A DNA stretch of 64,000 bases. Origin: Geosiphon pyriformis uo1 (taxonomy: Eukaryota; Fungi; Glomeromycota). A program made the position numbers and the translations under genes. Shown here in pieces: positions 4,441-64,000 of this stretch (positions are counted from its first letter, which is position 1; every line of letters starts with the position of its first letter). The stretch spans positions 62,001 through 126,000 of the forward strand of contig JAAOMT010000657.1 of NCBI GenBank assembly GCA_016748015.1, read 5' to 3'. The notes under the pieces were generated by a model, which saw only the letters and a program-made list of their open reading frames with translations, was not told the DNA's origin and made no database searches.

Positions 4441-4493
4441 TTGACAAAAGAATATATAAGAACATGGTCAATGCGACAGAAGAGATCAGAAAA

Positions 4494-5123
4494 ATGGAAA
4501 TTACAGACAATATCCATTCACTAATCCAACAAATTTTTCAATTAATCCAACACTAGGAGATGGAAATTACAATCAATCAACAAACCATTCATTACAAAAA
4601 TACAGCAAAGATACCACAAAACAAAGCACAAAAAAAACTTGAAAATGTTGTTGACAAGATCATGACCAAAATAAAATTGGCCATAAAAGAACAATAAATA
4701 GTCGGATTACACAAAGAACTTACCAGAGAAACTTGGACTTGGTGGACACAACAATTTCCAAAAAATTATTGTTACTTTTACTTGGGACAACATGTAAATA
4801 TCCAGAACTTATATACAGATAAAACAAAGTGGTTATTTGACACAACAATACTATAACAACTAGAACATTTTGTAAAGAAAAACAACTTATCTACACAAGC
4901 TTGAGCTATATACTAAATACACACAGCATTTCAGGATTGACCAGGAATCCTACTCAACAAAGCAATAAATACAGTTACCAATAATCAATTGAGAAAAATT
5001 ACCAATGCTCAATTTGAAAAATTACAGACTCAAATAACACAAGTAATTCTCGAAAACGAAATTCAGGAAATACTTCAAGAGGGAGAATTAAAAGAATTTG
5101 ATTTCAATGGAGCTCAATATTAA
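4494..5123 (+). pseudogene. GypA-1 ORF3, ~209 aa, unknown function
   Basis: Manual translation MEITDNIHSL...YFYLGQ...QFEKL...GAQY* stays in one frame; internal stops are explainable as C>T changes; homolog at 22341-22969 (-). Confidence 0.75.
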
Positions 5124-5136: not shown

Positions 5137-6034
5137 TGTTATTCATAGAATATAGGAAATATAGTATTATTAGTCAGTAGATATTAACCAATCAGATGTG
5201 GATGTAGTAAAATGTGGAATTCTAAGATTCTTCTCAAGAATTGCAGGATTCCAGGAATTACAAGATTCTCACACAAGAAATTGCAGGATTCCAGAATTCC
5301 AGGATTCCTCTCAAAGGAATTGCAGGATTCCAAGAATTCCAGAATTCCTGTCGTAAAGAATTGAGGAATTGAGGAATCTCAATTATGTATATATAGCAGT
5401 AGTGTTAGAAGTTGAAAAAGAGACATCTGAGTTTAGATTTAATCTAAGCAACCCTCTACATCACAAATATCAATAAATAACTATTTTTATACCTTAATTT
5501 ATCCTCCACTATCAACTTCATGTTGATAGTAACAAATACTTAAACATGCTGGAACAATAGCTCTTGATCACAGTTATTAATAGGATACTAATCAAAAATT
5601 GCCTTGGCTCATTTTTTTATTTTATTTCTGTTTTTTTTATTTCTTTTCTTTATTTTATTTTCTTTGTTGTTGTATACTAATTGATTAAAAAATTAAGTGC
5701 TGAGTTATTGACATCAAGGATAGCCTGGTAAAAGACTCAGAAATAAGGGTAAGATTTTTATATATTATTGGATAGCTTACCAGAAAGGCACGACTACCAG
5801 ACTAAATCCAGCCACCACAATAAGAAAGAAATTGGGAAAACTCTCAAAAGAATACATTTACTATTGATGCTATTAAATCTCTGTTCATTATATAAAGAAC
5901 TCAACCAAAACCTTCAGATCACATAAAACCTTCGGAATTACTACCACCCACATCAACAGAAATCAACATAGCTTTTGAGCACCAAGTTACAGGTTTGTTA
6001 TTTAATTCCACAGCAAAAATAATCACCTGTAACA
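5137..6034 (+). repeat. GypA-1 3' LTR
   Basis: TGTTA...GTAACA; TATA at 5388-5395, AATAAA at ~5472; homologous to 21481-22327 (-) and 16565-16821. Confidence 0.88.
5213..5380 (+). repeat. U3 tandem repeats of the GypA LTR (GAATTGCAGGATTCCAGGAATT-like units)
   Basis: About 4 degenerate 35-40 bp units; also present at 22090-22260 (-). Confidence 0.75.
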
Positions 6035-7148: not shown

Positions 7149-7825
7149 TGTTACAGGTTGGAGTAACAAATTAACGGATAGCAAGGGAAAACAGGATTGT
7201 AGGATGATGGAAATAATTAAAGAGAATTTCAATTTTAAAGAGCAAATTGAATAAGTATGGATTCAATATATAAGATCAGTCTCATAAAATATCTCAATTG
7301 CTATTCTTTTCAAAGGTAACTAGGGAATCTGAAAGTAGAGAGATAGTCTGTATTGTCAACAATTGATCACCACTGGTATAATTCTATGCCTTATGTCAGC
7401 ACTCTTAGAATTCAATATCAGGTATTAACTTGTGCTTTTCAGTCACATTTATTTAAATAATCTTCAAATGCTACAATTATATACATCAGAAAAAGGCCAA
7501 CAAGTAATCTTTTATCTTTAAAATGTTCAGATACTTGAAGGTAGGGAAAGGGAAATTAGCGATAAGAGAAAAATTGAGATGAAAGTTGTTATTTTATTTA
7601 TTTTTGATTATTCAGATGCTTGTTATTATATGCTTTTCTATAGCTAAGAGATTTATCACTTATATAGTTATCAAAAGTGTTCAATGATCAGGTCAATAAT
7701 CAGGTCAACGGTCAGGTCATTGATCAGGTCAATGATCACTTTCTAAAAATAGTGTGGCTAATCATATGACATTAGTGGCTAATATATGTAATAATTAATA
7801 AGAAGTATAGATCTCAACCATAATA
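7149..7825 (-). repeat. GypB-2 3' LTR
   Basis: Matches 14157-14833. Confidence 0.92.
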
Positions 7826-8450
7826 TCATTCTTTCCAAAGAAATTGAGCTTTGGCAAAATCAAGCTATTTATAGTGTAATCTATTTGAAAAGTGTTATCT
7901 AACTCAAAGCTAACTAATTTATTAAAGTCTTTTGTAGATAGGGTGTATAATACTTGAGGCAAAATGAGTTTTGTATTCAAGAGACCAAATCTTTGTATTA
8001 GAGTTTTGGCTCTTCTAGCAATGATTAAAACTCTTGGAACATCCAATCATATAATGCCCAAAATTTCTGCCTGTATCTCTGAAGTTGTTTTCTTTATAAG
8101 CTTTATATCATCTATGATTTTACTAAGGCGACCATAGAGTTCTAGTTGTCTTCCATATAACAAGTTTTTGTCTATAGGTAAGATTTCTTTAATTGTTTTT
8201 CCAAGTGTGGTGGAAGGTATGAGTATTGCTGCTGTTATACTTTCTAGCAGATATTTATTTATTTTGCTACCAATTTTTTTTTTCTGGTAGTTGTTTTCTT
8301 TGGTCTAATAACAGTATGTGTTCCACTGCTATCAATTATGGTAGTCTGTTTTCTAATAGTCAAAGTAGCATTTGGATAGTTTTTAATCCAATACTCATGG
8401 AGAGTATAGAAGGCATTTTGAATGTTTTGATCCAGAAAATAATTGTTTAT
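7795..8450 (-). pseudogene. GypB-2 ORF3 (broken)
   Basis: ORF fragments 8259-8546 and 7795-8046 match the intact ORF3 at 34578-35234. Confidence 0.85.
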
Positions 8451-19843: not shown

Positions 19844-21480
19844 TGTTATGGGTTGGAGTAACAAGCTAATGGATAGCAAGGAAAAACAGAATTGTAGGGT
19901 AATAGAAATAATCAAAGAGAATTTCAACTTTAAAGAGCGAATTAAATGAGTATAGATTTAATGTGCAAGATCAATCTCATAAAATATCTCAGTTGCTATT
20001 CTTTTCAAAGGTAACTGGGGAATCTGAAGGTAGAAAAATAGTCCGTACTGTCAACAATTGATTACCACTGGTATAATTCTATGTCTCATGTCAGTGCTCT
20101 TAGAATTCAATATCAGATATCAACTTGTGCTTTTCAATCATGTTTATTCAAATAATCTTCAAATGCTACAATTATATATGTTAGGAAAAAGCCAACAAGT
20201 AATCTTTTATCTTTAAGATGTTCAGATACTTGAAGGTAAAGAAAGGAAAATTAGTGATAAAAAAAGAATTGAGATAAAAGTTGTTATTTTATTTATTCTT
20301 GATTATTTAGATGCTTGTTATTACATGCTTTTCTATAGCTAAAAGATTCATTATTTATATAGCTATCAAAAGTGGTCAATGATCAGGTCAACAACTAGGT
20401 TAATGATCAGGTCAATAATCAGGTTAATGATCAGATCATTGATCAGATCAATGATCAGGTCAATGATTAGGTTAATAGTCAGATCATTAATCAGGTTAAT
20501 GATCACTTTCTAAAAATAGTGTGGCTAATCATATAACATTAGTGGCTAATACATGTGATAATTAATAAGAAGTATAGATTTCAACCATAATATCATCTTT
20601 TCCAAAGAGATTAAGCTCTGGTGAAATTAAATTATTTATAGTGTAATCTATTGGAAGAGTTTTATTTAACTTAAAGCTAACTAGTTTGTTGAAGTCTTTT
20701 GTCAATAAGGTATATAATACTTGAGGCGAAATAAGTTTTGTATTCAAGAGACCAAATCTTTATATTAGAGTTTTGGCTCTTTTAGCAATAGTTAAAACTC
20801 TTGAGACATCTAACCGTATAATGCCCAAAATTTCTGCCTGTATCTCTGAAGTTGTTTTCTTCATGAGTTTTATATCCTCTATGATTTCACCAAGGTGACC
20901 ATAGAGTTCTAATTGCCTTCCATATGACAAGTTTTTGTCTATAGGTAAGATTTCTTGAATTGTTTTTCCAATTGTGCTAAAAGATGAAAGTATTGCCACT
21001 GTTATACTTTCTAACAGATATTTATCCATTTTGCTACTAATTTTTTCTCTTTTGGTAGTAATTTTCTTTGGTCTGATAACAGTATGTGTTCTATTGTTGT
21101 CAGTTATGGTGGTCTGTTTTCCAATAGTCAGAATAGTTTTTGATCCAATACTCATAGAGAGTATAGAAAGCATTTTGAATGTTTTGATCCAAAAAATAAT
21201 TGTTCATGTTGATTAAAGATACCTCTGTTTTGGGAATGGTGCATTTATTTATACTTGATTTTTGTTGATCATTTGAGTCAGTATTACCACAATAGGCAAC
21301 CAATCAGGTCATTTGTGATATTTCTTAAGTCATGTGCTGTGAACAGGACAATCATTGAGAATTGTTTCAGATTGATCTTGAAGAATATAAGAATCATTGT
21401 TCAAAACTTTGTTGACTATAAAGGGTCTTTTTCACTGGCTAGAAAATTTATCACCATAGATATTGTCTCTGTTTGAATGG
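19844..21480 (-). mobile_element. GypB-3 3' fragment (INT C-terminus, ORF3, 3' LTR 19844-20592)
   Basis: ORF3 fragments 20562-21303; LTR with eleven 12-bp repeats; interrupted by GypA-3. Confidence 0.88.
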
Positions 21481-24400
21481 TGTTATAGTTGAATTATTTG
21501 GAATTTTAAGTCAAATAACAAACCTGTAACTTGGTGTTCAAAAGCTATTTCCGTCAATAATATTCTGCAAATGTTGTATCTGAAGGTTTTGATGGAGTCT
21601 TTTGTATAATGGACAGAGATCCGATAGTGCGGCGATTTGTTGTTTGTTGTTAATTGTTTTCCAATTTCTTTCTCAGCTTGGTGGCTAGATTTATTCTAAC
21701 AGTCATGTTCTTCTGGTAAGCTAACTGATAATATATATAAATCTACCCTTATTTCTGGGTCTTTTACCAGGCTATCCGTGATGTCAATAACTCAGTGCTT
21801 TTAATCCTCAATCAATTAGTAGGCACAACAGAATTAAAGAAAGAAAGAAATAAAATAAAGAAAATAACAATGAAAATAAGCCAAGGCAATTATAGCTATA
21901 ATCAAGAGCTATTGTTCCAGCGTGGTTAAGTATCAATTACTATCAACATAAAGTGTTGATAGTAATGAGTGGATTGAGATATAAAATAATTATTTATTTG
22001 ATAATTGGGAATTGGAAGGTTGCTTAGATTAAATCTAAATTGAGAGGTTCATCTTTTCAGCTTCTAATCTTGCTGCTATATATACATAATTAAGATTCCT
22101 CAATTCCTTGATTCTTCACAACAGGAATCCTGAAATTCCTGGAATTCTGTGATTTCTTTGAGAAGAATCTTGGAATTCTGGAATCCTGCAATTCCTCATC
22201 AGGAAATTCTGAAATTCCTGGAATCCTGCAATTCCTGAGAGAAATCCTAAAATTCCACATTTACTATGCCTACTTCTGATTGGCTACTAATCATGTTAAT
22301 ATATTTCCTATATTTCTATAAGTAATATTATTTCCTCTTTTTAATATTGAGCTTTATTGAAATCCAACTCGTTTAATTCCTCCTCTTGAAGTATTTCCTG
22401 GATTTTGTTTTCGAGAATTACTTGTGTTATTTGGGTCTGTAATTCTTCAAATTGAGCATTGGTGATCTTTCCCAATTGATTACTGGTAACCATATCCATT
22501 GATTTGTTGAGTAATATTTCTGGTCTATTCTAAAATGCTGTGTGTATTCGGTATATGGCTCAGGCCTGTGTGAATAAGTTGTTCTTTTCCACAAAATGTT
22601 CTAATTGTTGTAGTATTCTTTTGTCGAATAATTGCTTTGTTTTATCCGTATATAGATTCTGGATATTTATATGTTGTCCCAAGTAAAAATAACAATAGTT
22701 TCTTGAAAATTGTTGTATCCATTAATTTCAAGTTTCTTTAGTCAACTCTTAATATAGTGTCTCTTTTGTCAACTCTCTTATTGTTAATTTTACTTTCGCA
22801 ATGATTTTGTCCACCGTATTTTCAGTTTCTTCTGTGTTCTGGGTTGCAATGTCTTTCTAGTATTTTGATATCGAATGGTTTGTTGATTGATTGTAATCTC
22901 CATTTTCTGGTGTTGGATCAATTGAAAAAGTTGTTGTACTAGTAAATGAATGTTGTCTGTAATTTCCATTTTCTGATATTTTCTGTCATGTCTACCGTGT
23001 CTTTATATATTTTTTTGCTGAATTAATTTAACATGTTGTTGTCGATAATAACTATTGGTTTCAGATCTCGTGGAATCTCATCTGGTTGGACTATTATTCT
23101 CTGTACTCCTAATTGTAAAATATTACTGGTAGATGGTAGTGTAATGTTGTGGTATGGTTTCAGTCAATCTCCATGTGCTGCTTTGGTTAAAATTTTGTTA
23201 TCCAGTCTTAATTTGTAAGCTCCATTTTCTAGAATTTCTTTTATGTGAAATGATCCATCCTATTTGGGATTGAATTTTCAACTCCATTGTTTTTCCACTT
23301 TGGTATGATGTAAGAGTACTTTGTCTCCAATCTTGAATTCAACTGGTTTGTCTAGTAGTTGACTATTATGTCTTTTTTTCTGTTTCTTTTGTGACTTTTG
23401 AATATTATCAGCTGCTCTTCTTCATTTGTTTTTCAATGTTTCCATTAATTCATATGTTCTTCTTAGCAATGTTTCTTGAAAATTCTCTTCTGTTATTGAT
23501 TCAGCTAGATATGTACTAATTTTTCTTTTTACTGGTAATGTTGCTGTTCTATCATATACTAATTTGAATGGTGTTGCTTGTGTAGTACCTTGCTTCATTG
23601 TTCGATAAGCAAATAATACTGATGGTATGAACAAATCCCATTTGTCCTGGTTTTTTTGGCTGAGTTTGGTAATTGCTTTACACAATGTTCTGTTGAATCT
23701 TTCGACTAATCTATTGGTTTGTGGATGGTATGGTAATGATAATGATCTCTTAATTCTGAATCTTTGGCTCAATTCTGTTAATGTTCTGTTCACAAAATGA
23801 GTTCTTTGGTCTGATAATAATTCCTTTGGACATCCGTGTCAACAAATTAAATCTTGATGAACAAATTTGGCAATGGATTTTGCATCTGCTCTTTGAATTG
23901 CTTTCACCTCTGGCCATTTAGTGAGATAGTCCATGGCTACTGCTATATATCTGTTTTCTCTGCTGGTAATTGTTAATGATCCAACTAAATCAATTCCAAT
24001 CCAGTCAAATGGTTGTCCCATTTTGATTGGTCTTAATGGTTCATTGGGTCTTGTTCCTCCTCTTTGCTGATAAGCATTACAATTTTGAACATATTGGATG
24101 ATGTCTGAATACATTGATGACCAATAGTATTTTTTTCTGGTTTTTTCTATGATTGTTTCTTTGTGAAAGTGTCTGGCTGTTGGATTTGAGTGCATGTTGA
24201 ATAATATTGTCTCTTTTTTTGGCTCTGTAATTACTCTGGTTGGCTGATCTAGATCCCTCCTATTTTTCTGATAAAGTATATTTTGGTAAGTGATAAAATA
24301 TTTTGATTGTTGTTTGATCCTCTTTCATTCCATTTGAGATAAATTCTCCTTAAACTGTTGAATGTTTATATAATATTAGAGTTGTTAATATTTTTGTATG

Positions 24401-28350: not shown

Positions 28351-28499
28351 TGTTATGGTTGAAACTCATAGTTTTTATTAGTTATCACATGTATTAGCCA
28401 CTGATGTCATATTGTTATGGTTGAAACACATAGTTTTTATTAATTATCACATGTATTAGCCACTGATGTTATATAATTAGCCACCCTATTTTTAGATAA

Positions 28500-28620
28500 T
28501 GATCATTGACCTGATCAATAACCTGACCGTTGACCTGATTAATGACCTGATTATTGACCTGATCATTGACCTGATCATTGACCTGATCATTGACCTGATC
28601 ATTGATCTGGTCGTTGACCA
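28500..28620 (+). repeat. U3 12-bp tandem array (TGATCATTGACC)x10
   Basis: Direct count; 2-12 units in the other GypB LTRs. Confidence 0.9.
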
Positions 28621-29144
28621 CTTTAGATAGCTATATAAGCGATGATTCTCTTAGCTGTAGAAAGACATGATCAAAGTAACGAAATAAACAATATCAATTA
28701 CTTCCTCTCATAATTGCTTATTCCCCTTTTCTTACCTTCAAGTATCTACTTGTTGGTATTCACATACCTTATCTTTTCCCCTTCTTGATTTGTATTTGTT
28801 AGAATTAGCCTGAGAAGCAATTGGCTTGCTCTTGTAATTCATTGAATAAAGAAACGATTGAAAAGTACAACAATACCTGTTATTGATTTTAAGAATCGCC
28901 GAGTTGAAGCATAGAATAATAGCAGCAGTGTTATCTTGTTGACAATCATAGACTATTCCTCTACCTTCAGATTTAAGAAAAGATTAGCGACTGTGATTTT
29001 TATGAGATTGATCACACACATTGAATTCCTACTTATTCAATTTGCTCCCTTATTGTAATTTCTTCTTTGTTTATTTCCATCACCATACAATACTGTTCTC
29101 CCTTGCTATCCGTTAGCTTGTTACTCCAACCCGTAACATAAAAG

Positions 29145-29163
29145 TGGTGCTCCCTGTAAGGTT
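29145..29163 (+). promoter_or_regulatory. GypB-6 PBS
   Basis: TGGTGCTCCCTGTAAGGTT after LTR-TAAAAG. Confidence 0.85.
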
Positions 29164-29190
29164 GTCAAAATTTACTTATTCCCTCATTGT

Positions 29191-30744
29191 ATGGGTGATT
29201 ACTCATATCTGCCACAGCAATCAGAAGAACACTTTGTAGCACACAACAGAAATGACCAAAGTTTCATTGAACTTAATCCTCTGCCCTCCTGCTTGATCTG
29301 CTTCCCCCTTGAAGAACAATCAAGTAGACAATTCCAAGACTTTTGGAACTGGTTCCTAAATGAGCATTCAGCTGAAATCTACACAGCTTATACAACCTAT
29401 TACTTTGACCAAGCTTATTTTGAAAATGACTTTGAAGAAAGAAACAACAGTATCAATCAGCTCTTATATTCTGCAACCTTTGAACAACAGCCCCCTGATT
29501 TCGAATATCTGAATCATCAAATCCACATTTGGATTGCTGCCCATCAAGCAACTGAAACTCCCTTTGAAACAGAAGAAGAAAGCTACCAAACTGCCTCTGT
29601 TTTTGATCTTTTATCAAGGGAATCAGACTTGTCTACACAAACAGTTACCCCTGAACCAATGGCTAATGACCCCATGCAAGCAAATATTCTGGCCCCCCTC
29701 CAAGGTATATAAACTGCTCTAGGGCGAAGAAACAACACTCCAATACCATTATTTAGAGGTGATGCACAAGATCCAATTGAATGGTTGGATGACTTTGAAA
29801 GAGCCGCTACAGCCAATCAATATGATGATGAGTACAAGTTCCAAATTGTTGGTGGCTACCTTCAAAAATCCCCTGCTACCTGGTTCTCACAAGAAACAGA
29901 TGCCAATGCCCAGCAAAGAATTGTTAGATGAACACCAGCAAATGTGGGAGAAATCAACACTTCTTTTACTACCCGGTTTGAAAACAAGTTCAGAACCCCA
30001 ATATTAATATCAAAATGGTGTATGGAATTGGAAAGAAGAACCCAAGGTCCCAGTGAAGTTGTAACCGAATACGCCAAAGTAATCAGAAAGTTAATCAAAC
30101 GAGTAGACACTAGAAGAAATTAGACAGAAGAGCAGAAAATTCACTTTTTCACAAAAGGATTGAGAACTAATCTATTGTATGCTCTTTGGCCCCTCCTGGC
30201 CCTGAAAGATAATCCCACCATGGATATGGCCATTGAATTAGCACAAAGAATTGAAGACAACCAAAGGATGCATTTGGAATCCACACTATTAGTTTTTGCT
30301 CCTGTTTCTGTTATGGCTCCCCACTCTCAAATGGCTGCTACTTCTTTTGCCACTCACACTCAAGATCCAAATGAACAGTTAATAAACAGACTCACAGCAA
30401 ATCTTGCTCGGTTATTAGAACCCTTAGCCCAAGCAGTCAGAGAAAATCAGCAACCACAAAGACCCAGATTTGAACCACGCTTCAATCAGCCCCAGCAACC
30501 ACCTTATCAAAGACAACAAAATCATGGCCCACCTGTATGCTATCGCTGTAGATTAACTGGACACTTTTCAAGAGATTGCAACAATCCTCCACTGCTTTCA
30601 CCAGTCCCCAGAAACAATGATGCTCAGAACAACAGGATCAACAACAACAATGTGCCCAACCAAAGACCCAATCATGCCAACATTAATTTCTTTGGAGAGG
30701 ATCCCCTAGTTGAAGCCACTGTTTATCAGCCTTTAAACTGGTAG
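29191..30744 (+). pseudogene. gag: GypB-6 gag (premature stops)
   Basis: Single frame MGDYSY...VYQPLNW* with CCHC knuckle. Confidence 0.9.
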
Positions 30745-30795
30745 GCGCATCTCCAAAGGGTGAGAGTGCAAGCCAACCAGAAAAAAACCTCTTTT
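30732..30795 (+). promoter_or_regulatory. -1 ribosomal frameshift signal (T TTA AAC plus stem-loop/pseudoknot)
   Basis: Heptamer in the correct phase just before the gag stop; the -1 frame runs into the protease ORF. Confidence 0.8.
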
Positions 30796-33290
30796 ACATT
30801 TTTAACTTAACTGATGATGACCATAACATGGATGAATTAGCAATCAACCCCTCTGAATCCACAAGAAAGAAGAAGAAAGCCAAAGTTGATTTCATTCTAA
30901 ACCCCAATAAAGCTTCTACATCAACTGCTGACAACAATGAGCCCCCAAAAGCCAAAGTTTTCAAGAACCCTCCAAAGTTGGAACCCCCAGAAATAGTACA
31001 AAAATTTGGTCCCTATTCTGTTGTTAAAGACCTTATGGAAACCCCAGCACATATAACTTTTGACCAATTAATGACCCATCCACAATTCAGAAAAGATCTT
31101 TGCAAATCTCTGATTCCAAAGAAAAAGACACCCAAAACCAACAAACGCCCTCGCCAAGCTGGACTTGCTGACAATAGCAATGTCACTCCTCTAATTTGTA
31201 AAGCCCAAGTGGCTGGCTACTTCATCGATTTGATCCTAGACAGTGGATCATCTGTTAGTGTTATTGCTAAACACTTTCTTGAAGCAATTGGCAGAAAAAT
31301 TGATGAACCATCCACACGACCAATGACCAATGTGCATGGNNNNNNNNNNNNNNNNNNNNNNNNNNNNNNNNNNNNNNNNNNNNNNNNNNNNNNNNNNNNN
31401 NNNNTGCTTTAATGAAATTTTTGGGTAAATGACAATACCCGCTGGACTATAATCGACAGCAAAGAGAACATTTGCGCAAACAATTAAATTTCTATTTGAT
31501 TCACCAGAACCAGTTATATAAAAGAAATAGAAAAGATCCTGACTGCTCCCAGAGAGTCATTAGATTTGAAGAAAGAGAAATTGTGATCTACAATATGCAC
31601 ACTGATCCATTAGCTGGACACTTTGGAAAAACAAAAACAATTCAGAAAACTTTAGCTTGCTATTATTGGCCTACTTTGGAAAAAGACATTGCTGAATACA
31701 TCAAAACCTGTGATATCTGCCAAAGAAGAGGAAAACCCAATCGCAAGGAAGATATCCATCCAATCTCTGTTGGTCAACCATTTGATAGAATTGGTATAGA
31801 TGTTGTTGGACCTTTAACAGTAACTTCTGATGGCAACAGATACATTATNNNNNNNNNNNNNNNNNNNNTCACTGGTTGTAGAACAAAGAGAACTCTCTCC
31901 AGAAGAAAGAAAGATAGACATTGAAAACCTGCTGGCTAGAAATAGCCCAGTTATCTCAAAAGAAAGTGAACCTCCTGGACGTACACATGTAATACAACAC
32001 ACCATCATTACCAGAGAAACTCGCCCCATCTATTTGAAGCCCTATCAATCCAACCAGTGCAATGATGAGTTTATCAAAAAGGAAATAACCCGAATAAAAA
32101 ACCTTGGATTCATACAGGAAACCAAGAGTGAATGGGCATTCCCAGTTGTAGTGGTATCCAAGAAAGGAGGAACCCTATGCTTTTGTGTTGACTATTACCA
32201 ATTAAATGCCATTACTAAAAGAGACATGTACCCACTTTCCAAGATTGATGCAATGTTAGACTAATTCCATGGTGCTGCTTTCTTCTCAACCATTGACTTA
32301 ACTACTAGATTCTGGCAAGTAGAGATGGATCCAGAAAGCAGAAAGAAAACTGCCTTCATCACTAAGTATGGTACCTACGAATTCACAGTCATGCCTTTTG
32401 GTCTCACAAATGCTCCTCCCACCTTTCAATGCTTAATAGACAAAGTATTTGAATCAGTAAAAGAAAACTTTGTTCTAGTCTACTTGGACAACATAATGGT
32501 ATACTCAAAAACCTGGGATGAACACCTTGAACATTTGCAAAAGGTTTTTGACCTCTTTAGAAATGCTGGTCTCAAGATCAATCCAATCAAATCATTCTTT
32601 GGATGTCAATCCACCCAGTTCCTTGGCCATCTTATTACAAAAGATGGAATCTTTCCTGATCCAGCCAAAATTGAAAAAGTTCAAAACATTAGACAACCAA
32701 TGAATGTTTATGAACTATGCTCTTTTCTTGGTTTGGCCTCTTATTATCACAAGTTTGTCAAGGATTTCTCCAAAATTGCTGCTCCTCTCAATCAGCTACT
32801 TAGAAAAAACATCAATTATTACTGGGGCACTCATCAACAAAAAGCATTTGAAATTCTGAAGAAAAAACTGGTTACAGAACCCATCCTCATGCAACCTAAT
32901 TTGGATCAACTTTTTATCCTCCACACTAATGCATCTGGCTATGGACTTGGTGCTGTTCTTTCCCAAAAAGATGAAGATAACAGAGAACATGCCATAACAT
33001 ATGCCAGTAGAACTCTCACACCAGCAGAAAAAAACTACTCAGTCACTAAGCAAGAAAGTTTAGCAGTAGTTTGGGCTACCAGCTACTGGGACAAATATCT
33101 TAAGAGTGTGAAATTTTTGGTGATAACAGATCACCAAGCTTTGGTTTGGCTACACAACAAAAGAAACCTGGAACATAAATGGATAATTTGCTGGATACTC
33201 CACTTGGACGAATTCGACTATGACATTCAACACCACAAAAGAGTTAATCATCAAAACATTGACGCTTTCTCTAGACTTACCATCCAGTAA
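30738..33290 (+). pseudogene. pol: GypB-6 pol (PR-RT-RH; gaps and a misplaced INT segment)
   Basis: LILDSGSS; ORFs 31830-32264 and 32325-33290. Confidence 0.85.
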
Positions 33291-33355
33291 TAGTAAAACC
33301 CTCTCAAACCAAACCAACTTAATTATTTGTAACTCCCCCACAAACAAACACGATA

Positions 33356-34530
33356 ATGGACTTGGACAACTACTCTGCTTTAATGAAATTTTTGGGTAAA
33401 TGACAATACCCGCTGGACTATAATCGACAGCAAAGAGAACATTTGCGCAAACAATTAAATTTCTATTTGATTCACCAGAACCAGTTATATAAAAGAAATA
33501 GAAAAGATCCTGACTGCTCCCAGAGAGTCATTAGATTTGAAGAAAGAGAAATTGTGATCTACAATATGCACACTGATCCATTAGCTGGACACTTTGGAAA
33601 AACAAAAACAATTCAGAAAACTTTAGCTTGCTATTATTGGCCTACTTTGGAAAAAGACATTGCNNNNNNNNNNNNNNNNNNNNNNNNNNNNNNNNNNNNN
33701 NNNNNNNNNNNNNNNNNNNNNNNNNNNNNNNNNNNNNNNNNNNNNNNNNNNNNNNNNNNNNNNNNNNNNNNNNNNATATTGTTTGTTGCCATGGCTGCCC
33801 CAAAGAACTTTTATCTGATAGAGGAAGAGCTTTTCTCAGTACACTGTTTAAAGAACTTTGCAGAAAAATGGAAATACGTCATAAACTCTCTTCCTCTTAT
33901 CACCCCCAAACAAATGGCCTAGTGGAACGTTTCAATAGAACACTATGTGAAACCCTAGCCAAAACCAGTAAAGAAACCAACCTATGAGACAAAGTATTGC
34001 CTTCAGCCTTGTTTGCTTACAGAACTGTGAATCATGACATAACAAGTTATGAACCCTTTTATCTGCTCTATGGACAAATGGCAACTCTACCAATAGAAAC
34101 AGATATAGAAACAATATCTTTTAAAGAAATAACAATAGGAGATTACAAGAACATTTTGCAAAGAAGACTTGGTAATATTCTTGACTCATTAGTAGAAGCA
34201 TGGATAATTGCCTTTGAAAAGATAAAACAGGTCCAAAAGAAGCTCAAAATCAAAAAAACCTATAAAACACTTTCCTTAAGTGTTGGTGACTTAGTTTTGG
34301 AATACCGTTCAGACAGAGACAATGTCTATAGTGATAAATTCTCTAGCCGGTGGAAAGGACTCTTTATAGTCAACAAAGTTTTGAACAATGGTTCTTATAT
34401 CTTACAAAATCAATATGGAACAATATTCAGTGATCGCCCTGTTCATGGCACGCGACTCAAGAAATATCACAAACGACCTGATTGGTTACTTGTTGTGGTA
34501 ATACCGACCCAAATGATCAGCAAAAATTAG
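33356..34530 (+). pseudogene. GypB-6 integrase (separate ORF starting MDLDNY)
   Basis: ATG at 33356 is in the frame of ORF 33443; HTDPLAGHFG, VERFNRTL, RWKG(P)F. Confidence 0.87.
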
Positions 34531-34577
34531 ATATAAATAAATGTACCATTCCCAAAACAGAGGTATCTTCAATTGAC

Positions 34578-35234
34578 ATGAACAATTATTTCCTGGATCA
34601 AAACATTCAAAACACTTTCTATACTCTCCATGAGTACTGGATTAAGAACTATCCAAATGCTACTCTGACTATTGGAAAACAAACCACTATAACAGATAAC
34701 AGTGGAACTTACACTGTTATTAGACCAAAGAAAACAACTACCAAAAGAGAAAGAATTGGTGGCAAAATGGATAAATACCTGCTGGAAAGCATAACAGCAG
34801 CAATACTTTCACCTTCCAGCACAATTGGAAAAACAATACAAGAAATCTTGCCCATAGACAAAAACTTGTCATATGGAAGACAACTAGAACTCTATGGTCG
34901 TCTTGGTGAAATCATAGAAGACATGAAGCTTATGAAGAAAACAACTTCAGAGATACAAGTGGAAATTTTGGGCATTATACGATTGGATGTTCTAAGAGTT
35001 TTGACCATTGCAAGAAGAGCCAGAACTCTTATACAAAGATTTGGTCTCTTGGATACAAAGCTTATTTTGCCTCAAGTACTATATACTCTATCCACAAAAG
35101 ACTTCAACAAACTAGTTAGTTTTGAGTTAGACAAAACCCTTTACATAGACTATCCCATAAATAGTTTGATTTCGCTGGAGCTCAATCTCTTTGGAGAGGA
35201 TGATGTTACGGTTAAAACACATAGTTTTTATTAA
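34578..35234 (+). CDS. GypB-6 ORF3, intact 218-aa protein of unknown function; overlaps the PPT and ends inside the 3' LTR
   Basis: Open frame 34482-35234; ATG (MNNYFL) kept in 5 of 7 copies and ATA in 2. Confidence 0.8.
   Translation: MNNYFLDQNIQNTFYTLHEYWIKNYPNATLTIGKQTTITDNSGTYTVIRPKKTTTKRERIGGKMDKYLLESITAAILSPSSTIGKTIQEILPIDKNLSYGRQLELYGRLGEIIEDMKLMKKTTSEIQVEILGIIRLDVLRVLTIARRARTLIQRFGLLDTKLILPQVLYTLSTKDFNKLVSFELDKTLYIDYPINSLISLELNLFGEDDVTVKTHSFY
35182..35203 (+). promoter_or_regulatory. GypB PPT region (TCAATCTCTTTGGAGAGGATGA)
   Basis: Immediately 5' of the 3' LTR start TGTTACGG. Confidence 0.8.
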
Positions 35235-37143
35235 TTATCACATGTATTAGNNNNNNNNNNNNNNNNNNNNTCTTGTAATTCATTGAATAAAGAAACGATT
35301 GAAAAGTACAACGATACCTGTTATTGATTCAAAGAATCGCCAAGTTGAAGCATAGAATAATAGCAGCAGTGTTATCTTGTTGACAATCATAGACTATTCC
35401 TCTACCTTCAGATTTAAGAAAAGATTAGTAACTGTGATTTTTATGAGACTGATCATGCACATTGAATTCCTACTTATTCAATTTGCTCCCTTATTGTAAT
35501 TCCTTCTTTGTTTATTTCCATCACCATACAATACTGTTCTCCCTTGCTATCCGTTAGCTTGTTACTCCAACCCGTAACAATATAATTAGCCACCATATTT
35601 TTAAATAGCAATCATTGACCTAATCATTGACCACTTTTCATAGCTATATAAGCAATGAATCTCTTAGCTGTAGAAAAGCATGTAATAACAAGCATCTGAA
35701 TAATCAAGAATAAATAAAATAACAACTTACATCTCAATCCTTCTCTTATTGCTAATTTCCCTTTCCCTACCTTCAAGTATCTGAACATCTTAAAGATAAA
35801 AGATTACTTGTTGGCCTTTTCCTGACATATATAATTATAGCATTTGAAGATTATTTGAATAAATGTGACTGAAAAGCACAAGTTGATACCTGATATTGAA
35901 TTCTAAGAGCGCCAATATAAGGCATAGAATTATACTAGTGGTAATCAATTGTTGACAGTACGGACTATCCCTCTACCTTCAGATTCCTTTGTTACCTTTT
36001 GAAAAGAATAGCAACTGAGATATTTTATAAGACTGATCTCGCACATTAAATCCATACTCATTCAATTTGCTCATTGAAGTTGAATTCCCTTTGATTATTT
36101 CCATCACCCTACAATTCTGTTCTCCCTTGCTATCCATTAGCTTGTTATTCCAACCCATAACATAAAAGTGATGCTCCCTGTGAGGTTGTTAAAATCTACT
36201 TTGTTTTCTATTGTATGGGTGATTATTCATACTTGCCACAACAATCAGAAGAACACTTTAAAGCACACAACAAAAATGATCTAAACTTTATTGAACTCAA
36301 TTCTTTGCCCTCCTGCTTGATTTGCTTTCCCATTGAAAAACAATCCAGCAGACAATTCCAAAACTTTTGGAACTGGTTTCTGGACAAGCATTCAGCTGAA
36401 ACCTATACAGCTTATACAACCTATTGTTACGGGTTGGAGTAACAAACTAACAGATAGCAAGAGAGAACAGTATTGTATGGTAATGGAAATAAACAAAGAG
36501 AAAATTACAATAAGGGAGCAAATTGAATAAATAGGAATTCAATGTGCATGATCAGTCTCATAAAAATCACAGTTACTAATCTTTTCTTAAATCTGAAGGT
36601 AGAGGAATAGTCTATGATTGTCAACAAGATAACACTGCTGCTATTATTCTATGCTTCAACTTGGCGATTCTTTGAATCAATAACAGGTATCGTTGTACTT
36701 TTCAATCGTTTCTTTATTCAATGAATTACAAGAGCAAGCCAATTGCTTCTCAGGCTAATTCTAACAAATACAAATCAAGAAGGGGAAAAGATAAGATATG
36801 TGAATGCCAACAAGTAGATACTTGAAGGTAAGGAAAGAGGAATAAGCGATTATAAGAGGAAGTAATTGATATTGTTTATTTCATTACTTTGATCATGTTA
36901 TTCTACAGTTAAGAGAATCATCGCTTATATAGCTATCTAAAGTGGTCAACGACCAGGTCAATAATCAGGTCAATGATTAGGTCAATGATCAGGTCAACGA
37001 TCAGTTCATTGATCAGGTCAATAATCAGGTCAATAATCAGATTAATGATCAGGTCAATGGTCAGGTCATTGATCAGGTCAATAATCACTATCTAAAAATA
37101 GAGTGGCTAATTATATGACATCAGTGGCTAATACATGTGATAA

Positions 37144-37780
37144 CTAATAAAAACTATGAGTTTCAACTGTAACATCATTCTCTCTAAAGAGATTGAGCTC
37201 CGGCGAAATCAAACTATTTATGGGATAGTCTATGTGAAGGGTTTTGTCTAACTCAAAACTAACTAGTTTGTTGAAGTCTTTTGTGGATAGGATATATAAT
37301 ACTTGAGGTGAAATAAGTTTTGTATCCAAGAGACCAAATCTTTGTATAAGAGTTCTGGCTCTTTTAGCAATGGTCAAAACTCTTGAGACATCCAATCGTA
37401 TAATGCCCAAAATTTCCTCTTGTATCTCTGAAGTTGTTTTCTATGATTTCACCAAGACGACCATAGAGTTCTAGTTGTCTTCCATATGACAAGTTTTTGT
37501 CTATGGGCAAGATTTCTTGTATTGTTTTTCCAATTGTGCTGGAAGGTGAAAGTATTGCTGCTGTTATGCTTTCCAGCAGGTATTTATTCATTTTGCCACC
37601 AATTTTTTCTCTTCTGGTAGTTGTTTTCTTTGGTCTGATAACAGTGTGAGTTCCACTGTTGTCTGTTATGGTGATTTGTTTTCCAATAGTCAGAGTAGCA
37701 TTTTGATAGTTCTTGATCCAGTACTTATGGAGAGTATAGAAAGCATTTTGAATGTTTTGATCCAGGAAATAATTGTTCAT
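37144..37780 (-). pseudogene. GypB-7 ORF3 (frameshifted)
   Basis: ORFs 37364-37876 and 37144-37410. Confidence 0.85.
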
Positions 37781-37821
37781 CTTGATTGAAGATACCTCTG
37801 TTTTGGGAATGGTGCATTTAT

Positions 37822-39135
37822 TTATATCTGATTTTTGCTGATCATTTGGGTCGGTATTACCACAACAGGTAACCAATCAGGTTGTTTGTGATATTTCTTG
37901 AGTCATGTACCATGAACAGGGCGATCATTGAAGATTGTTCCATATTGATCTTGTAAGATATAAGAACCATTGTTCAAAACTTTGTTGACTATAAAAGGTC
38001 CTTTCCAGCAGCTGGAGAATTTATTACCATAGACATTGTCTCTGTCTGAATGGTATTCCAAAACTAAGTCATCAACACTTAAGAAAAGTGTTTTATAGGT
38101 CTTTTTCTTTTTGAGCTTCTTTTGGAACTGTTTTATCTTTTCAAAGGCAATTATCTATGCTTCTACCAATGAGTCAAAAATGGTACCAAGTCTTCTTTAC
38201 AAAATGTCCTTGTAATCTCCTATTGTTATTTCTTCAAAAAGTATTGTTTCTATATTTGTTTCTATTGGTAGAGTTGCCATTTGTCCATAGAGCAGATAAA
38301 AGGGTTCATAACTTATTATGTCATGATTCACAGTTCTGTAAGTAAACAATGCTGAAGGCAATACTTTGTCCCATAGGTTGGTTTCTTTACTGGTTTTGGC
38401 TAGGGTTTCACATAGTGTTCTATTGAAACGTTCCACTAGGCCATTTGTTTGGGGGTGATAAGAGGAAGAGAGTTTATGACATATTCCCATTTTTCTGCAA
38501 AGTTCTTTAAACAGTGTACTGAGAAAAGCTCTTCCTCTATCAGATAAAAGTTCTTTGGGGCAGCCATGGCAACAAACAATATCTTCATAAATGAAATTGG
38601 CAATTGAGACTGCTGTTTGATTTGGGGTGGCTCTTGCTTCTACCCACTTTGTAAGATAGTCGGTAGCTGTAATAATGTATCTGTTGCCATCAGAAGTTAC
38701 TGTTAAAGGTCCAACAACATCTATACCAATTCTATCAAATGGTTGACCAACAGAGATTGGATGGATATCTTCCTTGCGATTGGGTTTTCCTCTTCTTTGG
38801 CAGGTATCACAGGTTTTGATGTATTCAGCAATGTCTTTTTCCAAAGTAGGCCAATAATAGCAAGCTAAAGTTTTCTGAATTGTTTTTGTTTTTCCAAAGT
38901 GTCCAGCTAATGAATCAATGTGCATATTGTAGATCACAATTTCTCTTTTTTTAAATTTAATAACTCTCTGGGGGCAGTCAGGATCTTTTTTATTTCTTTT
39001 ATATAACTGGTTCTGGCGAATCAAATAGAAATTTGATTGTTTGCACAAATGTTCTCTTTGCTGTCGAGTATAGTCTGGTGTGAATTGTTATTTACCCAAA
39101 AATTCCATTAAGGCAGAGTAGTTGTCCAAGTCCAT
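37822..39135 (-). pseudogene. GypB-7 integrase (separate ORF)
   Basis: ORF 38197-39048 with HHCC and D-D-E residues. Confidence 0.9.
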
Positions 39136-39200
39136 TATTGCGTTTGTTTGTGGGAGAGTTACAAATAATTAAGTTGGTTTGGTTTGAGAGGGTTTTGCTA

Positions 39201-43429: not shown

Positions 43430-45007
43430 ACAATGAGGGAATAAGTAAATTTTGACAACCTCACAGGGAGCACCACTTTTATGTTACGGGTTGGAATAAC
43501 AAGCTAACGGATAGCAAGGGAGAACAGTATTGTATGGTGATGGAAATAAACAAAGAGGGAATTACAATAAGGGAGCAAATTGAATAAGTAGGAATTCAAT
43601 GTGTGTGTTCAGTCTCATAAAAATCACAGTCGCTAATCTTTTTTTAAATCTGAAGGTAGAGGAATAGTCCGTGATTGTCAACAAGATAACACCACTGCTA
43701 TTATTCTATGCCTCAACTTGGCAATTCTTAGAATCAATAACAGGTATCATTGTGCTTTTCAATCATTTTTTTATTCAATGAATTACAAGAGCAAGCCAAT
43801 TGCTTCTCAGGCTAATTCTAACAAATACAAATCAAGAAGGGGAAAAGATAAGGTATGTAAATGCCAACAAGTAGATACTTGAAGGTAAGGAAAGGGGAAT
43901 AAGCAATTATGAGAGAAAGTAATTGATATTGTTTATTTCGTTACTTTGATCATGTCATTCTACAGCTAAGGGAATCATCACTTATATAGCTATCTAAAGT
44001 GGTCAATGACCAGGTCAATGATCAGGTCAATGATCACTATCTAAAAATAGGGTGGCTAATTATATGACATCAGTGGCTAATACATGTGATAACTAATAAA
44101 AACTATGGGTTTCAACCATAACACTATTACTTTGACCAAGCTTATTTTGAAGACGACTTTGAAGAAAGAAACAACAGTATTAATCAGCTCTTATATTCTG
44201 CAACCTTTGAACAACAGCCCACTGATTTCAAATATTTGAATCATCAAATCCACATTTGGATTGCTGCCCATCAAGCAACTGAAACTCCATTTGAAACAGA
44301 AGAAGAAAGCTACCAAACTGTTCCTGTTTTTGATCTTTTATCAAGTGAATCAGACTTATCTACACAAACAGTTACCCCTGAACCAATGGCTAATGACTTC
44401 ATGCAAGCAAACATTCTGGCCGCCCTCCAAGGTATACAAACTGCTCTAAGAAGAAGAAACAATACTCCACTACCACTATTTAGATGTGATGCACAAGATC
44501 CAATTGAATGGTTGGATGATTTTGAGAGAACTGCCACAGCCAATCAGTATGATGAAGAATACAAGTTCCAAATTATTGGTGGCTACCTCCAAGGCTCTCC
44601 TGCTACAAGAAACAGATGCCAATGCTCAACACAGAATAATCAAATAGATACCAACCAATGCTGAAGAAAATACCTCTTTTACTACCTGGTTTGAGGCCAA
44701 GTTCAGAACTCCAATATTAATATCCAAATGGCGCATGGAATTGGAAAAAAGAACCCAAGGCCCTGGAGAAGTAGAGACTGAATATGCCAAAGCTATTAGA
44801 AAGCTAATCAAACGTGTAGACTCTGGGAAAAACTGGACAGAACAAAAGATCCATTCCTTCACAAAAGAATTAAGAACAGATCTATCATATGCTCTTTGGC
44901 CTCTCTTGGCTTTAAAAGACAACCCAATAATGGATATAGCTATTGAACTGGCACAAAGAATTGAAGATAACCAAAGGATGCATTTGGGATCCACACTTCT
45001 AGTTTTT

Positions 45008-49953: not shown

Positions 49954-50566
49954 ATGAACAAATATTTTCTGGACCAAAACATTCAAAACACTTTCTATAC
50001 TCTCTATGAGTATTGGATCAAAAACTATCCAAATGCTATCAACAGTGGAACTCATACTGTTATCAGACCAAAGAAAACAACTACCAAAAGAGAAAGAATT
50101 GGTAGCAAAATGGATAAGTATTTGCTGGAAAGTATAATAGCAGCCTTCTATTACAATTAGAAAAACAATTAAAGAAATCTTGCCCATAGACAAAAACTTG
50201 TCATATGGAAGACAACTAGAACTCTATGGTTGCCTTGGTGAAATCATAGAAGACATGAAGCTTATGAAGAAAACAACTTCTGAGATACAAGTGGAAATTT
50301 TGGACATTGTATGATTAGATGTTCCAAGAGTTTTGACCATTGCAAAAAGAGCCAAAACTCTTATACAAAGATTTGGTCTCTTGGACACAAAGCTCATTTC
50401 CCCTCAAGTTTTATATATCTTATCCACAAAAGACTTTAACAAACTAGTTAGTTTTAAGTTAGATAAAACCCTTCAAATAGAGTATTCCCTAAATAGTTTG
50501 ATTTTACCAGAGCTCAATCTCTTTGGAGAGGATAATATTATGGTTGAAACTCATAGTTTTTATTAG
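49954..50566 (+). pseudogene. GypB-5 ORF3 (deletions)
   Basis: ORFs 49858-50160 and 50333-50566. Confidence 0.83.
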
Positions 50567-51212: not shown

Positions 51213-53944
51213 GTATCAGTGAATCACCTTGCCTTCATTGATGACACAGTGTGGATAGCTAACTCAAGACAAGAGATGCAAAGTATTTTGGACACAGCCA
51301 GCTCCTTTTTTAAAATGGTGGATATTAAGATCAACTTAGATAAGACTGAAACAATGGTGGTCAGACCCTCCAAAAAGAGATCTTCAATGGTTGAGCCACT
51401 AAAATTTGGTCCAGACAAACAAATCTTGAAATTGTTGGATTCATCTACATGTACCCAATATTTGGGGGTATGGATCAGAGCAGATGGGAAAAATGAGACT
51501 GTTCTAAAAATGATAGGATCTGACATTGAAGCAGTATGTGCAGTCATCAGGAAAAAACACATAACTGAGAAACAGGCCATTTATATTTTTAACAGTGTAC
51601 TCAGTCCAGTTATTGAATTCAGATCTCAGTTGACTCATATTCCTAATAGCTGGGCTAGAAAATGTACTTTAAAGATTTCAGCCACTGTGAAGAAAAAAGC
51701 AAAACTTTCAGTAGATTTCCCAGCCAGTGCCATGTATCACTCATCCTTGTATAACTTGTTCAAAATTAATGATATACAAGCAAAAAGCCAGATCACAGAT
51801 TTGTTAGTTAGATTGAACAGTGCTGATATTGTTAGAATGGCTACAAAAATCAGACTAGCCAACTTGCAGGCACAAAGATGGTCAGCTTATAGTATACTTG
51901 AATATCCCACTAATGAACGATCTAAGCCAGGGGTTAATCTTATAGCAAACATTATACAGATGATGGAAAAAAGAGGCATCTCATTCAAGAGCAATGGTAA
52001 CACACATGGGGTACCTGAATCTTCAAGACCACAGACATATTTAATTGAGTCTATCTTACCTTCAAGTGAAACCTACATTAAAGTTAGAAGCTTACTAAGA
52101 AAGAAAAACATGTTGTACTTGCATCAGATACAGAACAAAAATGAGTCATTGATGACATGAATGGACTTCACAAGGAAGTACAGACAAAGCAATAGTGGTA
52201 GAATTTCCAGATGGTTTAAGATTTTAGAATCTACAATCATTATGGATAAGTACAGAAACATTGATGTAGCACAATGTGAGACATTGGGTATGCACATACT
52301 GACTAACCAAATACCAGATGATTGAGAAACAATGCAAAGAAACATTATTTATATCCATATCCCTGACACTTTACTACCACAATAGAAGTGTGTACAAGAG
52401 AAGTTAAGACTCAGGAAAAAAATAGAAATATCAACAGATGGCTCACTGGTAAGAGCTGGTTCTGAGGAAGCAAAAGGAGCAGCTGCTTTTATAACACATG
52501 GGATAGAGGCCGAATTTGGTATAGCAATTGATGGAACATTATCATTAACAAAAGCAGAGGCAAAGGCTGTATTGCTAGCTTTGGAAGCAGTGCCTTACAG
52601 ATGCAAACTAACAATAAACACAGATAGTTAAGCAGTAATGGCAATGGCTCAAAGATGGTTGTCTAAAGATTCTCCCCTGTCTATTAGAAATCAGCTCAAA
52701 ACTTCAAACTGGTGCACATAGAATGCAATCAGAGTGATAATAAGGGAAAAAAAGATTGATCTCAACATGAACAAAGTGGCAGCATATGCTGGTATATTAG
52801 AAAATGAAAAGGCTGACAAACTAGCCAAAGGATCTATTACTCTTGATACAGTGAGGTGGGCCTACAATGCTAAGGAGACTGCATACATTTTTGTTTGTGG
52901 AGGAGTTGAATTAGATCTAAACATCAGACATTTTCTGAACAAACAGGCTAGTCTTCAATCAGCTTTAGACTGGATAGGCAACAACAAAGTCTAAGAGACA
53001 ATAGGATCTTTAGACCAAGATATAGACTGGATATGCACAACCAAGATTTGGAACTGGGATAGAAAGATGTCATCTGGCTTCATTTCAGCTGGTTCTTCAG
53101 CAATGCACACATTTATTATGAAATCATTTCACAACATGCTGCCAATAGCAGAGGTGCTATACAACAGATGTCTCCATGTATACCTGAATAATCTTTGCAA
53201 GACATGTTACAGAGAAGTGAAAACCAACTGGCACTTTTGGGAATGCTCTCTGAACACCCAAAAGGGCAAGACACTGATTGATGATGTAAAAGATAAGTGA
53301 ATACAGTGCCTTTCAGAGGCTGTGAAAGGGGGATGTGAAGCCCATAATACTGATGAGAAGATTGTACTGTCTAATGAATACATTATGTCAATGTCTAACA
53401 TAGATCTGCTATGTAAAGGACTGATCAATAAGCAATTTAGAAGAATCAATGCTTTTTCTGACATCAACCTGAGGATTAGCAATAATGTATTAATTAAGGT
53501 GTGTAAATGGGCAGTTACTCAAGCAAGAAATAGATTGTGGGGAGAACATTGCAAATTGCAAACTGAATGGGAAAAAACAATGGGTATTGATAATAGGGTC
53601 AAGAGAAATCCAACTGGTGGTTCCAGTATACATAGCACTTCAAGAAATAGTGGTAAAGATAATGGCAAACCCATAGTCAAAATAGGTGATGTTTTCACAC
53701 AGTGTAATGGTATACTGACTAATGTTTTTTGTGGTAAGAATACTTTGTGTAATAGTGTAATACCCCATAGATTTTTTGGTTATACTAGCATGTAGTTAGG
53801 CATAACCACTTAGTAGTTAGCCACATCTTGTAATTTAGATTATTGGGTGAGTTGGCTTTATGAAAAAGTCATGCTTTTTAAGTGTGGCTAAACTAATAAA
53901 AGACCAGCGTGGCTACACATTAACAAAAAAAAAGAAAAAAAGAA
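51213..53944 (+). mobile_element. LINE-b 3' part: RT C-terminal half, RNase H, CCHC finger, 3' UTR, poly(A) tail
   Basis: AFIDD, YLGVWI, TDGS...AE...TDS...NEKADKLAK, CKTC-x7-HFWEC; AATAAA at 53895 and A-tail at ~53922-53944. Confidence 0.9.
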
Positions 53945-55062
53945 TGTGAGAATATAGCTGCTGTTATACTTTCTAACAAATATTTATCCATTTTACTACC
54001 AATTTTTTCTCTTCTGGTAGTAGTTTTCTTTGGTTTAATAACAATATGGGTTCCATTGTTATCAGTTATGGTGGTCTGTTTTTCAATGGTCAGAGTAGTA
54101 TTTGAATAGTTTTTAATTCAATACTCATGGAGAGTATAGAAAACATTTTGAATGTTTTGATCCAGAAAAATATTGTTCATGTCAATTGAAAATACCTTTG
54201 TTTTGGAAATGGTACATTTATTTATACTATATTTTTGCTGATTATTTGAACCAATCAGGTCGTTTATGATATTTTTTGAGTCATGTACTATGAACAAGAT
54301 GATTATTAAAGATGGTTCCAGATTGATCTTGAAGAATATATGAACCATTGTTCAAAACTTTGTTAGCTAAAAAGTGTCCTTTTCACCAGCTAGAGAATTT
54401 ATTACCATAGACATTGTCTCTATCTAAATAGTATTCCAATACCAAGTCACCAATACTTAAAGAAAATATTTTATAGGTTTTCTTTTTTTTATCATTTCAA
54501 AAACAATTATTTGTGCTTCTACTAATGAGTCAAGAATGATACCAAGTCTTCTTTACAAATGTTTTTATAATTTCCTATTGTGATTTCTTCAAAGAGTATT
54601 GTTTCAATATCAGTTTCTATTGGTAGTGTTGCCATGCATTCATAAAGCAGATAAAAAGATTCATAACTTGTTATGTTATGATTCACAGTTCTATAAGCAA
54701 ACAAAGCTGAAGGCAGTACTTTGTCTCATAAGTTTGTTTCTTTACTGGTTTTGGCTAAGGTTTTACATAGTGTTCTATTGAAATGTTTTACTAGGCTATT
54801 TATTTGGGGATGGTAAGGGGAGGAAAGTTTATAATGTATTCCCATTTTTCTGTAAAGTTCTTCAACCAGTGTACTGAGAAAAGCTTTTTCTCTATCAGAT
54901 AAAAGTTTTTTGGGGCAGCCATAATGGCAGATGATATCTTTATAAATAAAATTGGCTATTGAGACTGCTATTTGGTCTGAAGTGGCTCTTGCTTTTACCA
55001 ACTTTGTAAGATAGTCAGTAGCTGTGATAATGTATCTGTTGTCATCAGAAGTTATTGTTAAA
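53945..55062 (-). mobile_element. GypB-8 old internal fragment (INT and ORF3), target of LINE-b and LINE-c
   Basis: ORFs 54726-55001, 54522-54704 and 54118-54348 match GypB INT and ORF3. Confidence 0.85.
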
Positions 55063-63529: not shown

Positions 63530-64000
63530 ATAAATGCACCATTTCCAAAACAGGGGTATCTTCAATCAACATAAACAATTATTTTCTGGATTAAAACATT
63601 CAAAATGCTTTCTATATTCTTCATAAGTATTGGATTAAAAACTATTCAAATGCTACTCTGACCATTAGAAAACAAATTACAATAACTGACAACAGTGGAA
63701 CACATACTGTTATCAGACCAAAGAAAACAACTACCAGAAGAGAAAGAATTGGTAGCAAAATGGATAAGTATCTGTTGGAAAGCATAACAGCAGCAATACT
63801 TGTATCTTCCACCACAATTGGAAAAATGATTAAAGAAATCTTGCCCATAGACAAAAACTTGTCATATGGAAGACAACTAGAGCTCTATGGTTGCCTTAGT
63901 GAAATCATAGAAGACATGAAGCTCATAAAGAAAACAACTTCTGAGATACAAGTGGAAATTTTGGGCATTATACAGTTGGATGTCCCAAAAGTTTTGACCA

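Follow-up and report, generated by a model that had tools for sequence, protein, structure and literature searches.

A non-Env third gene under selection in Ty3/Gypsy retrotransposons of Geosiphon pyriformis, and a tentative role on its own long terminal repeat

Two families of Ty3/Gypsy retrotransposons, GypA and GypB, lie within a 64,000-nt stretch of the genome of the glomeromycotan fungus Geosiphon pyriformis (contig JAAOMT010000657.1, positions 62,001 to 126,000; hereafter the window), and both carry a third open reading frame (ORF3) in the slot where some elements have env. We find that ORF3 is a real gene under purifying selection in both GypA and GypB, and that it is a non-Env third gene in both. 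As to its function, we offer a tentative proposal: the product of this selected accessory gene, which belongs to a clade of fungal Ty3/Gypsy elements, might bind DNA and act on the tandem array in the long terminal repeat (LTR) of its own element.

A third gene under purifying selection

Searches with tblastn and blastn located seven copies of GypB ORF3 in the window: five of full length, one truncated where the window ends, and a 5' piece.

34578..35234 (+): intact copy, 218 aa; ATG at 34578, TAA at 35232-35234, stop-free between
37147..37780 (-): copy with a 20-nt deletion
7798..8450 (-): copy with a 1-nt deletion and a stop
49954..50563 (+): copy with three deletions and a stop
20565..21207 (-): copy with an 11-nt deletion and a stop
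63571..64000 (+): copy with a stop, cut off by the window end
53942..54180 (-): 5' fragment

Because the other six carry stops, frameshifts, or both, the copy at 34578..35234 is the sole intact GypB ORF3 in the window. A preliminary description, made from the sequence alone, had given it as intact, 218 aa long, and present in seven copies, and translation and both searches agree. The stop-free stretch spans 233 codons; the longest in 5,000 shuffles reached 153. In this copy, the ATG lies 47 nt past the integrase stop and in a different frame, and the 3' end overlaps the polypurine tract (PPT; 35193-35203). As the PPT is read through and the LTR starts at 35204, the stop falls 31 nt inside the LTR, close to the ~30 nt first described. 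Since the ORF3 frame is open from 34482, it might have been reached by a -1 frameshift from pol; we rejected this, as no canonical slippery heptamer was seen and distant relatives (below) begin at the same Met. Separately, an AG at 34555-34562, ~16-20 nt 5' of the ATG, is retained in six of the seven GypB copies and may be a splice acceptor.

For GypA, a reconstructed ORF3 of ~209 aa at 4494-5123 had been described, and it is borne out by a single frame and by a natural, stop-free 209-aa protein in nr (P0142).

4464..5123 (+): GypA ORF3, candidate ATGs at 4464 and 4494; one frame with six stops (read as X)
5124-5136 (+): GypA PPT, directly after the ORF3 stop codon; the LTR begins at 5137
22344..22987 (-): second GypA ORF3 copy, frameshifted

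Among the matches listed, 118 of 120 close homologs of GypB ORF3 are G. pyriformis hypothetical proteins, the remaining two being encoded in the window, and 20 of the 120 clusters are exactly 218 aa long; all 104 close homologs listed for GypA ORF3 are likewise G. pyriformis hypothetical proteins.

The GypB selection test used variants that two or more of the seven copies have in common, which are mostly older than the insertions. In ORF3, these comprise 50 synonymous, 39 non-synonymous, and 1 stop variant, distributed 23/16/51 over the three codon positions. The synonymous fraction is 0.56, versus 0.32 under a null that preserves the transition-rich spectrum (78 of the 90 variants are transitions; p = 0.0002, omega ~0.37). 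Both halves of ORF3 carry the signal, and the two shifted sense frames do not. Omega in the controls was 0.38 for the integrase (IN) core, 0.24 for reverse transcriptase-RNase H (RT-RH), 0.24 for gag, and 1.25-1.27 for the LTR, and two copies of GypA ORF3 gave 0.48 (p = 0.0002). The dN/dS check proposed in the preliminary description hence found no neutrality in either family. That ORF3 is a neutral frame hitchhiking with the PPT and LTR, as the overlap of its 3' end with both and the six broken window copies might suggest, we regard as refuted and of negligible probability, given a codon-position bias and an omega of ~0.37 seen in the ORF3 frame only, not in the shifted sense frames or the LTR, and relatives at the protein level at ~30% identity.

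The preliminary description had also excluded Env, having seen no signal peptide, transmembrane segment, or furin site. Hydropathy and residue checks on GypB ORF3 (P0001) and five relatives concur: the best Kyte-Doolittle 19-residue mean is 0.27-1.56 (1.56 in P0001, at most 1.12 in the relatives), no transmembrane anchor or signal-like hydrophobic segment was found by hydropathy, no furin-type RxK/RR site was found, and there are 0-1 cysteines. Pfam has no family for ORF3 of GypB, its distant relatives, GypA, or the metagenomic element L004 (below); specifically, P0001, P0134, and P0142 matched nothing in Pfam at E<=1, Env families included, and no DEDDy exonuclease or GDSL esterase matched at E<=1 in nine proteins or at E<=10 for L004 ORF3. 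Foldseek found no viral structure in BFVD at E<=0.001, and the confident match to a known Env or movement protein that would have told against the preliminary description was found neither there nor in Pfam or PDB sequences. A role as Env, fusogen, or movement protein, spreading the element between nuclei or cells, would suit the env slot and a host group that is coenocytic; with such low hydrophobicity and cysteine content and no family or structural match, it is largely refuted already and we hold it to be very improbable.

Relatives of ORF3 and the question of a common origin

An exhaustive search of 1.84 billion representatives with GypB ORF3 returned 28 matches, including four distant relatives at 29-34% identity (P0132, P0134, P0136, and P0137); a profile search added a fifth, P0246. 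Another candidate, P0138 (E 4e-4), was rejected as a repeat artefact. The distant proteins align from the same first Met as GypB ORF3, and both of those that are complete finish with the motif encoded by the GypB PPT/LTR junction. They probably sit in related LTR elements, a placement made because of that end motif only; scans with the ORF3 alignment (two metagenome, one viral) found no DNA loci for them.

The preliminary description had further proposed, by eye, that GypA and GypB ORF3 align loosely end to end through five motif pairs. Unsupervised MAFFT puts all five pairs in register and collinear. Significance did not follow, and the direct tests, non-significant under strict nulls, count against a common origin. 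BLASTP gave E>=4, HMMER cross-searches E>=0.017 per single target, and hhalign a probability of 0.25-0.26 in a register different from the proposed one. The best of 12 pairwise global tests reached z 2.6, most staying below 1.7, and the profile-profile comparison that had been suggested as a check gave a global z of 1.1-1.4, against 18.7 for a positive control (GypB versus its distant relatives). The profile tests have low power because the profiles are shallow (Neff 1.4-2.1). A joint-alignment statistic reached z 3.0 on column shuffles (0/120) and 1.3-1.8 on block shuffles (7/70 and 4/70). Of the two results that together would have told against the preliminary description, lack of a significant GypA-GypB profile match was obtained, and neutral dN/dS was not.

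An independent element bears on the question. Scanning with an alignment of GypA and GypB integrases gave 24 loci (L003-L026), all on prokaryotic metagenome-assembled genome (MAG) contigs in GTDB that are probably eukaryotic contamination; viral scans with IN or RT returned nothing, or distant RT relatives only. Among 26 loci (the 24 and two viral), an ORF3 of the GypA/GypB kind was found in L004 only, L003 and L015 ending too soon, and whole-locus hidden Markov model scans of all 26 were non-significant. L004 is a Gypsy element with 46% IN identity on a contig binned in a soil bacterial MAG, presumably eukaryotic. Its ORF3 encodes 146 aa and has a stop that adjoins a PPT/LTR junction nearly identical to that of GypB. 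In an IN tree of 20 rows, which leaves out the two viral loci and six of the 24 others for short or absent IN matches, GypA, GypB, L003, and L004 form one clade (90/96). Two further features of these loci are recorded here: a long T-rich tract (L004 2500-2612) directly before the L004 ORF3 start, possibly a splice-acceptor or translation signal, and apparent Env-like extensions fused to pol in L008 and L013.

We built a three-block profile on the three C-terminal motif pairs, which had been named before L004 was known; its spacer ranges were chosen after L004 was seen. The combined GypA and GypB profile finds ordered matching blocks in L004 ORF3. Scores as high occurred in none of 600 shuffles, in 7 of 600 block-shuffled controls, and in none of 315 tiles from real proteins. 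The corresponding counts were 2, 22, and 1 for a GypA-only profile and 15, 45, and 5 for a GypB-only profile. The GypA-only profile takes the expected register on P0132 (10/300) and not on P0134 (220/300). L004 ORF3 matches P0132 weakly (E 0.009; p 0.014-0.035, best of nine targets) and has no significant pairwise match to GypA ORF3. Of the five pairs, then, the three C-terminal ones gain support from L004, and the two N-terminal ones have no independent support. On the basis of position, length, a single integrase clade, and the motif test through L004, we consider it likely that GypA, GypB, and L004 ORF3 inherited their C-terminal domains from one ancestor; for the whole GypA and GypB proteins, common ancestry appears less probable than that.

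Alternatively, the two ORF3s may be unrelated genes captured separately into one slot, their motif pairs being chance resemblances between amphipathic helices. Every direct GypA-GypB test is compatible with separate capture, and bdelloids have unrelated ORF3 types within one genome (excerpt of PMC5408684). The collinear motif order, the singling out of the independent L004 ORF3 by the combined profile, the single IN clade, the similar lengths, and predicted models that both start helix, beta-hairpin, helix (the GypA model being poor) argue against it, and we judge separate capture less likely than not. This alternative is about where the genes came from, and any function of ORF3 would agree with it. 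Similar motif patterns are presumably common in hypothetical proteins of other arbuscular mycorrhizal fungi; our searches did not recover them, and we treat this as a lead only.

Predicted fold and proposed role

GypB ORF3 is predicted to comprise an N-terminal helix and beta-hairpin and a C-terminal all-alpha domain (residues ~99-181). The Geosiphon ORF3 proteins are basic (pI 9.1-9.9) and predicted to be soluble. Weak structural neighbours of the model are mostly DNA-binding domains, and for residues ~80-190, the recurrent ones are helix-turn-helix (HTH) domains of the ParB/KorB/SopB type (PDB 1r71, 3mkw, 3vwb, 1vz0, and 7bm8). In PDB and BFVD, Foldseek matched nothing at E<=0.001, the best E in a PDB sequence search was 0.26, and no sequence-profile match to a ParB/KorB-type HTH was found in Pfam or PDB sequences. 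ESM Atlas yielded no usable match (best feature scores 0.81 for P0001 and 0.86 for P0132; best TM score 0.35, on a model of pLDDT 0.49), two of its weak rows being HTH clusters. The GypA ORF3 model was too poor for structural comparison, and a homodimer prediction for residues 1-190 scored 0.14, with the mark at 0.32. We suggest that the C-terminal domain may be an HTH that binds DNA, a proposal whose chances we place just short of even.

A candidate site for such a protein is the tandem array in the U3 region of the GypB LTR.

28500..28619 (+): GypB U3 tandem array, ten 12-bp units, closely followed by a TATA-like box
5216..5377 (+): GypA U3 tandem array, 16-23-nt spacing, ~39-nt higher period

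Other GypB LTRs hold 2-12 copies of the 12-bp unit. The GypA and GypB arrays are unrelated in unit, and no clear array was found in L004. In the mechanism we propose, a soluble ORF3 product, putatively translated from a separate, probably spliced, message, would bind DNA through its C-terminal HTH-like domain and would recognize the family-specific array, switching on or protecting its own element; ORF3 would diverge fast because it co-evolves with that LTR. This picture of a putative transactivator or anti-silencer is possible, and we hold it with more doubt than confidence. Among the roles listed in the preliminary description, transactivator or anti-silencer appears to fit the weak structural lead best, and nothing was found favouring TAV-like reinitiation or an integrase adaptor. 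The most specific version, in which the Glomeromycota Ty3/Gypsy clade encodes its own HTH transactivator or anti-silencer, one whose undescribed, ParB/KorB-like fold family co-evolves with the family-specific U3 array, is unlikely as it stands.

Two other functions deserve weighing. Small helical bundles bind RNA too, and a basic, soluble protein would suit an RNA-binding accessory factor acting in Rev- or CERV-like export of unspliced RNA, or as a translation or packaging helper. CERV, from the Gypsy element Cer1 of C. elegans, is a known factor of this sort (excerpt of PMC10309623). No sequence or fold link from ORF3 to CERV, Rev, or TAV was found, and the weak structural neighbours mostly bind DNA; we think RNA binding improbable. 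Somewhat less probable still is that ORF3 anchors the integration complex on the DNA or chromatin of its target, replacing a chromodomain absent from these integrases. The IN C-termini indeed lack a chromodomain match (only an SH3-like match, in GypA), the elements nest in one another, and four element ends have 4-bp target-site duplications (TSDs) with a central TA; integrase alone can, however, give target preference.

Genomic setting and known accessory genes

The window consists of nested LTR and non-LTR retroelements. The GypB element that hosts the intact ORF3 has the TG...CA LTRs, TSD, primer-binding site, and PPT of a Ty3/Gypsy (Metaviridae) element, and Pfam matches in GypB copies give the order gag, then protease (PR)-RT-RH-IN.

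28413-35579 (+): host GypB element, TG...CA LTRs, 4-bp TSD
28413..29138 (+): 5' LTR (TG...CA); TSD copy at 28409-28412
29145..29162 (+): primer-binding-site-like sequence, begins TGG, 6 nt past the LTR end
29191..34530 (+): gag-PR-RT-RH-IN, interrupted by stops and N gaps and by an assembly duplication
35193..35203 (+): PPT within ORF3, encoding the end motif present too in metagenomic relatives
35204..35579 (+): 3' LTR; TSD copy at 35580-35583

A 20-N assembly gap (35251-35270) hides ~350 nt of the 3' LTR. The element sits 62 nt inside another GypB LTR; DNA contigs show loose ends at 35204, the 3' LTR start, and they connect across the point of insertion, consistent with an empty LTR. Its broken gag-pol, with N gaps, includes an exact 288-nt duplication (31405-31692 and 33376-33663) beside N runs, probably an assembly artefact. 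An exact 354-nt inverted pair lies at 45161-45514 and 45535-45888. TSDs are 4 bp with a central TA in all four GypB element pairs checked (28409-28412/35580-35583, 7149-14833, 36425-44123, and 19844-26764), one of them mismatched, suggesting that the choice of target is biased by sequence. In GypB, the gag frame opens right at the LTR end with a long N-terminal extension that has no Pfam match (42647-43483 on the minus strand, and copies); replacements are depleted there among shared variants (pN/pS 0.23, uncorrected). In GypA, a dUTPase domain precedes RT (434-1633; Pfam E 8e-14), and no dUTPase match was found among the GypB ORFs scanned. Non-LTR pieces (RT, endonuclease, and an RRM-containing ORF1) are split by Gypsy insertions at 51087-52160, 18211-18849, 27750-28307, and 55490-56455.

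Additional non-Env ORFs form a recognized category in LTR elements, mostly of unknown function. It includes bdelloid ORF3s between pol and the 3' LTR (excerpt of PMC5408684) and plant additional ORFs, with Boty of Botrytis as a fungal antisense case (excerpt of PMC7264820). Like these, Geosiphon ORF3 is an extra, non-Env ORF found family-wide in the position of env, and its conservation is close to that of the core genes. Unlike them, it is not of the GDSL, DEDDy, transmembrane, or coiled-coil type (by Pfam and hydropathy), is sense-oriented, belongs to a Glomeromycota clade, and in GypB stops inside the LTR. VANC proteins are anti-silencing factors of VANDAL transposons (excerpts of PMC5735166 and PMC13547354, the latter treating accessory proteins in Arabidopsis). 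VANC resembles ORF3 as a fast-diverging accessory protein encoded beside family-specific tandem repeats, such as those in GypA and GypB U3; it differs in coming from plant DNA transposons and being MAIN-related, and no similarity was found. CERV, too, is a regulatory, non-Env orphan protein that a Gypsy element encodes; it is made from a spliced mRNA and exports RNA, and no similarity to ORF3 was detected. The excerpt of a fungal LTR-element survey mentions only gag, pol, and inserted domains (PMC3248453), and that of a transposable element (TE) survey of arbuscular mycorrhizal fungi reports a striking LTR expansion in Geosiphonaceae and does not mention ORF3 (PMC11952901). We found no description of this family in the full-text literature; Repbase, GyDB, Dfam, subscription journals, and supplements lay outside the search, so a TE-library entry may exist. 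ORF3 represents a real, undescribed family of accessory genes that belongs to a known category and is probably clade-wide.

The family is under selection as strong as that on integrase and occurs in at least two, and probably in three, lineages that have diverged within a fungal clade. Among the matches listed, it accounts for more than 200 Geosiphon 'hypothetical protein' clusters as retrotransposon genes. The U3 array is the obvious candidate target, and with a 25-kDa protein and a 12-bp repeat, the escape of a fungal retrotransposon from methylation or small-RNA silencing becomes testable. If the proposal is true, LTR retrotransposons of fungi would have a VANC/Tas-style system of self-activation, one that may have helped to drive the LTR burst in Geosiphonaceae.
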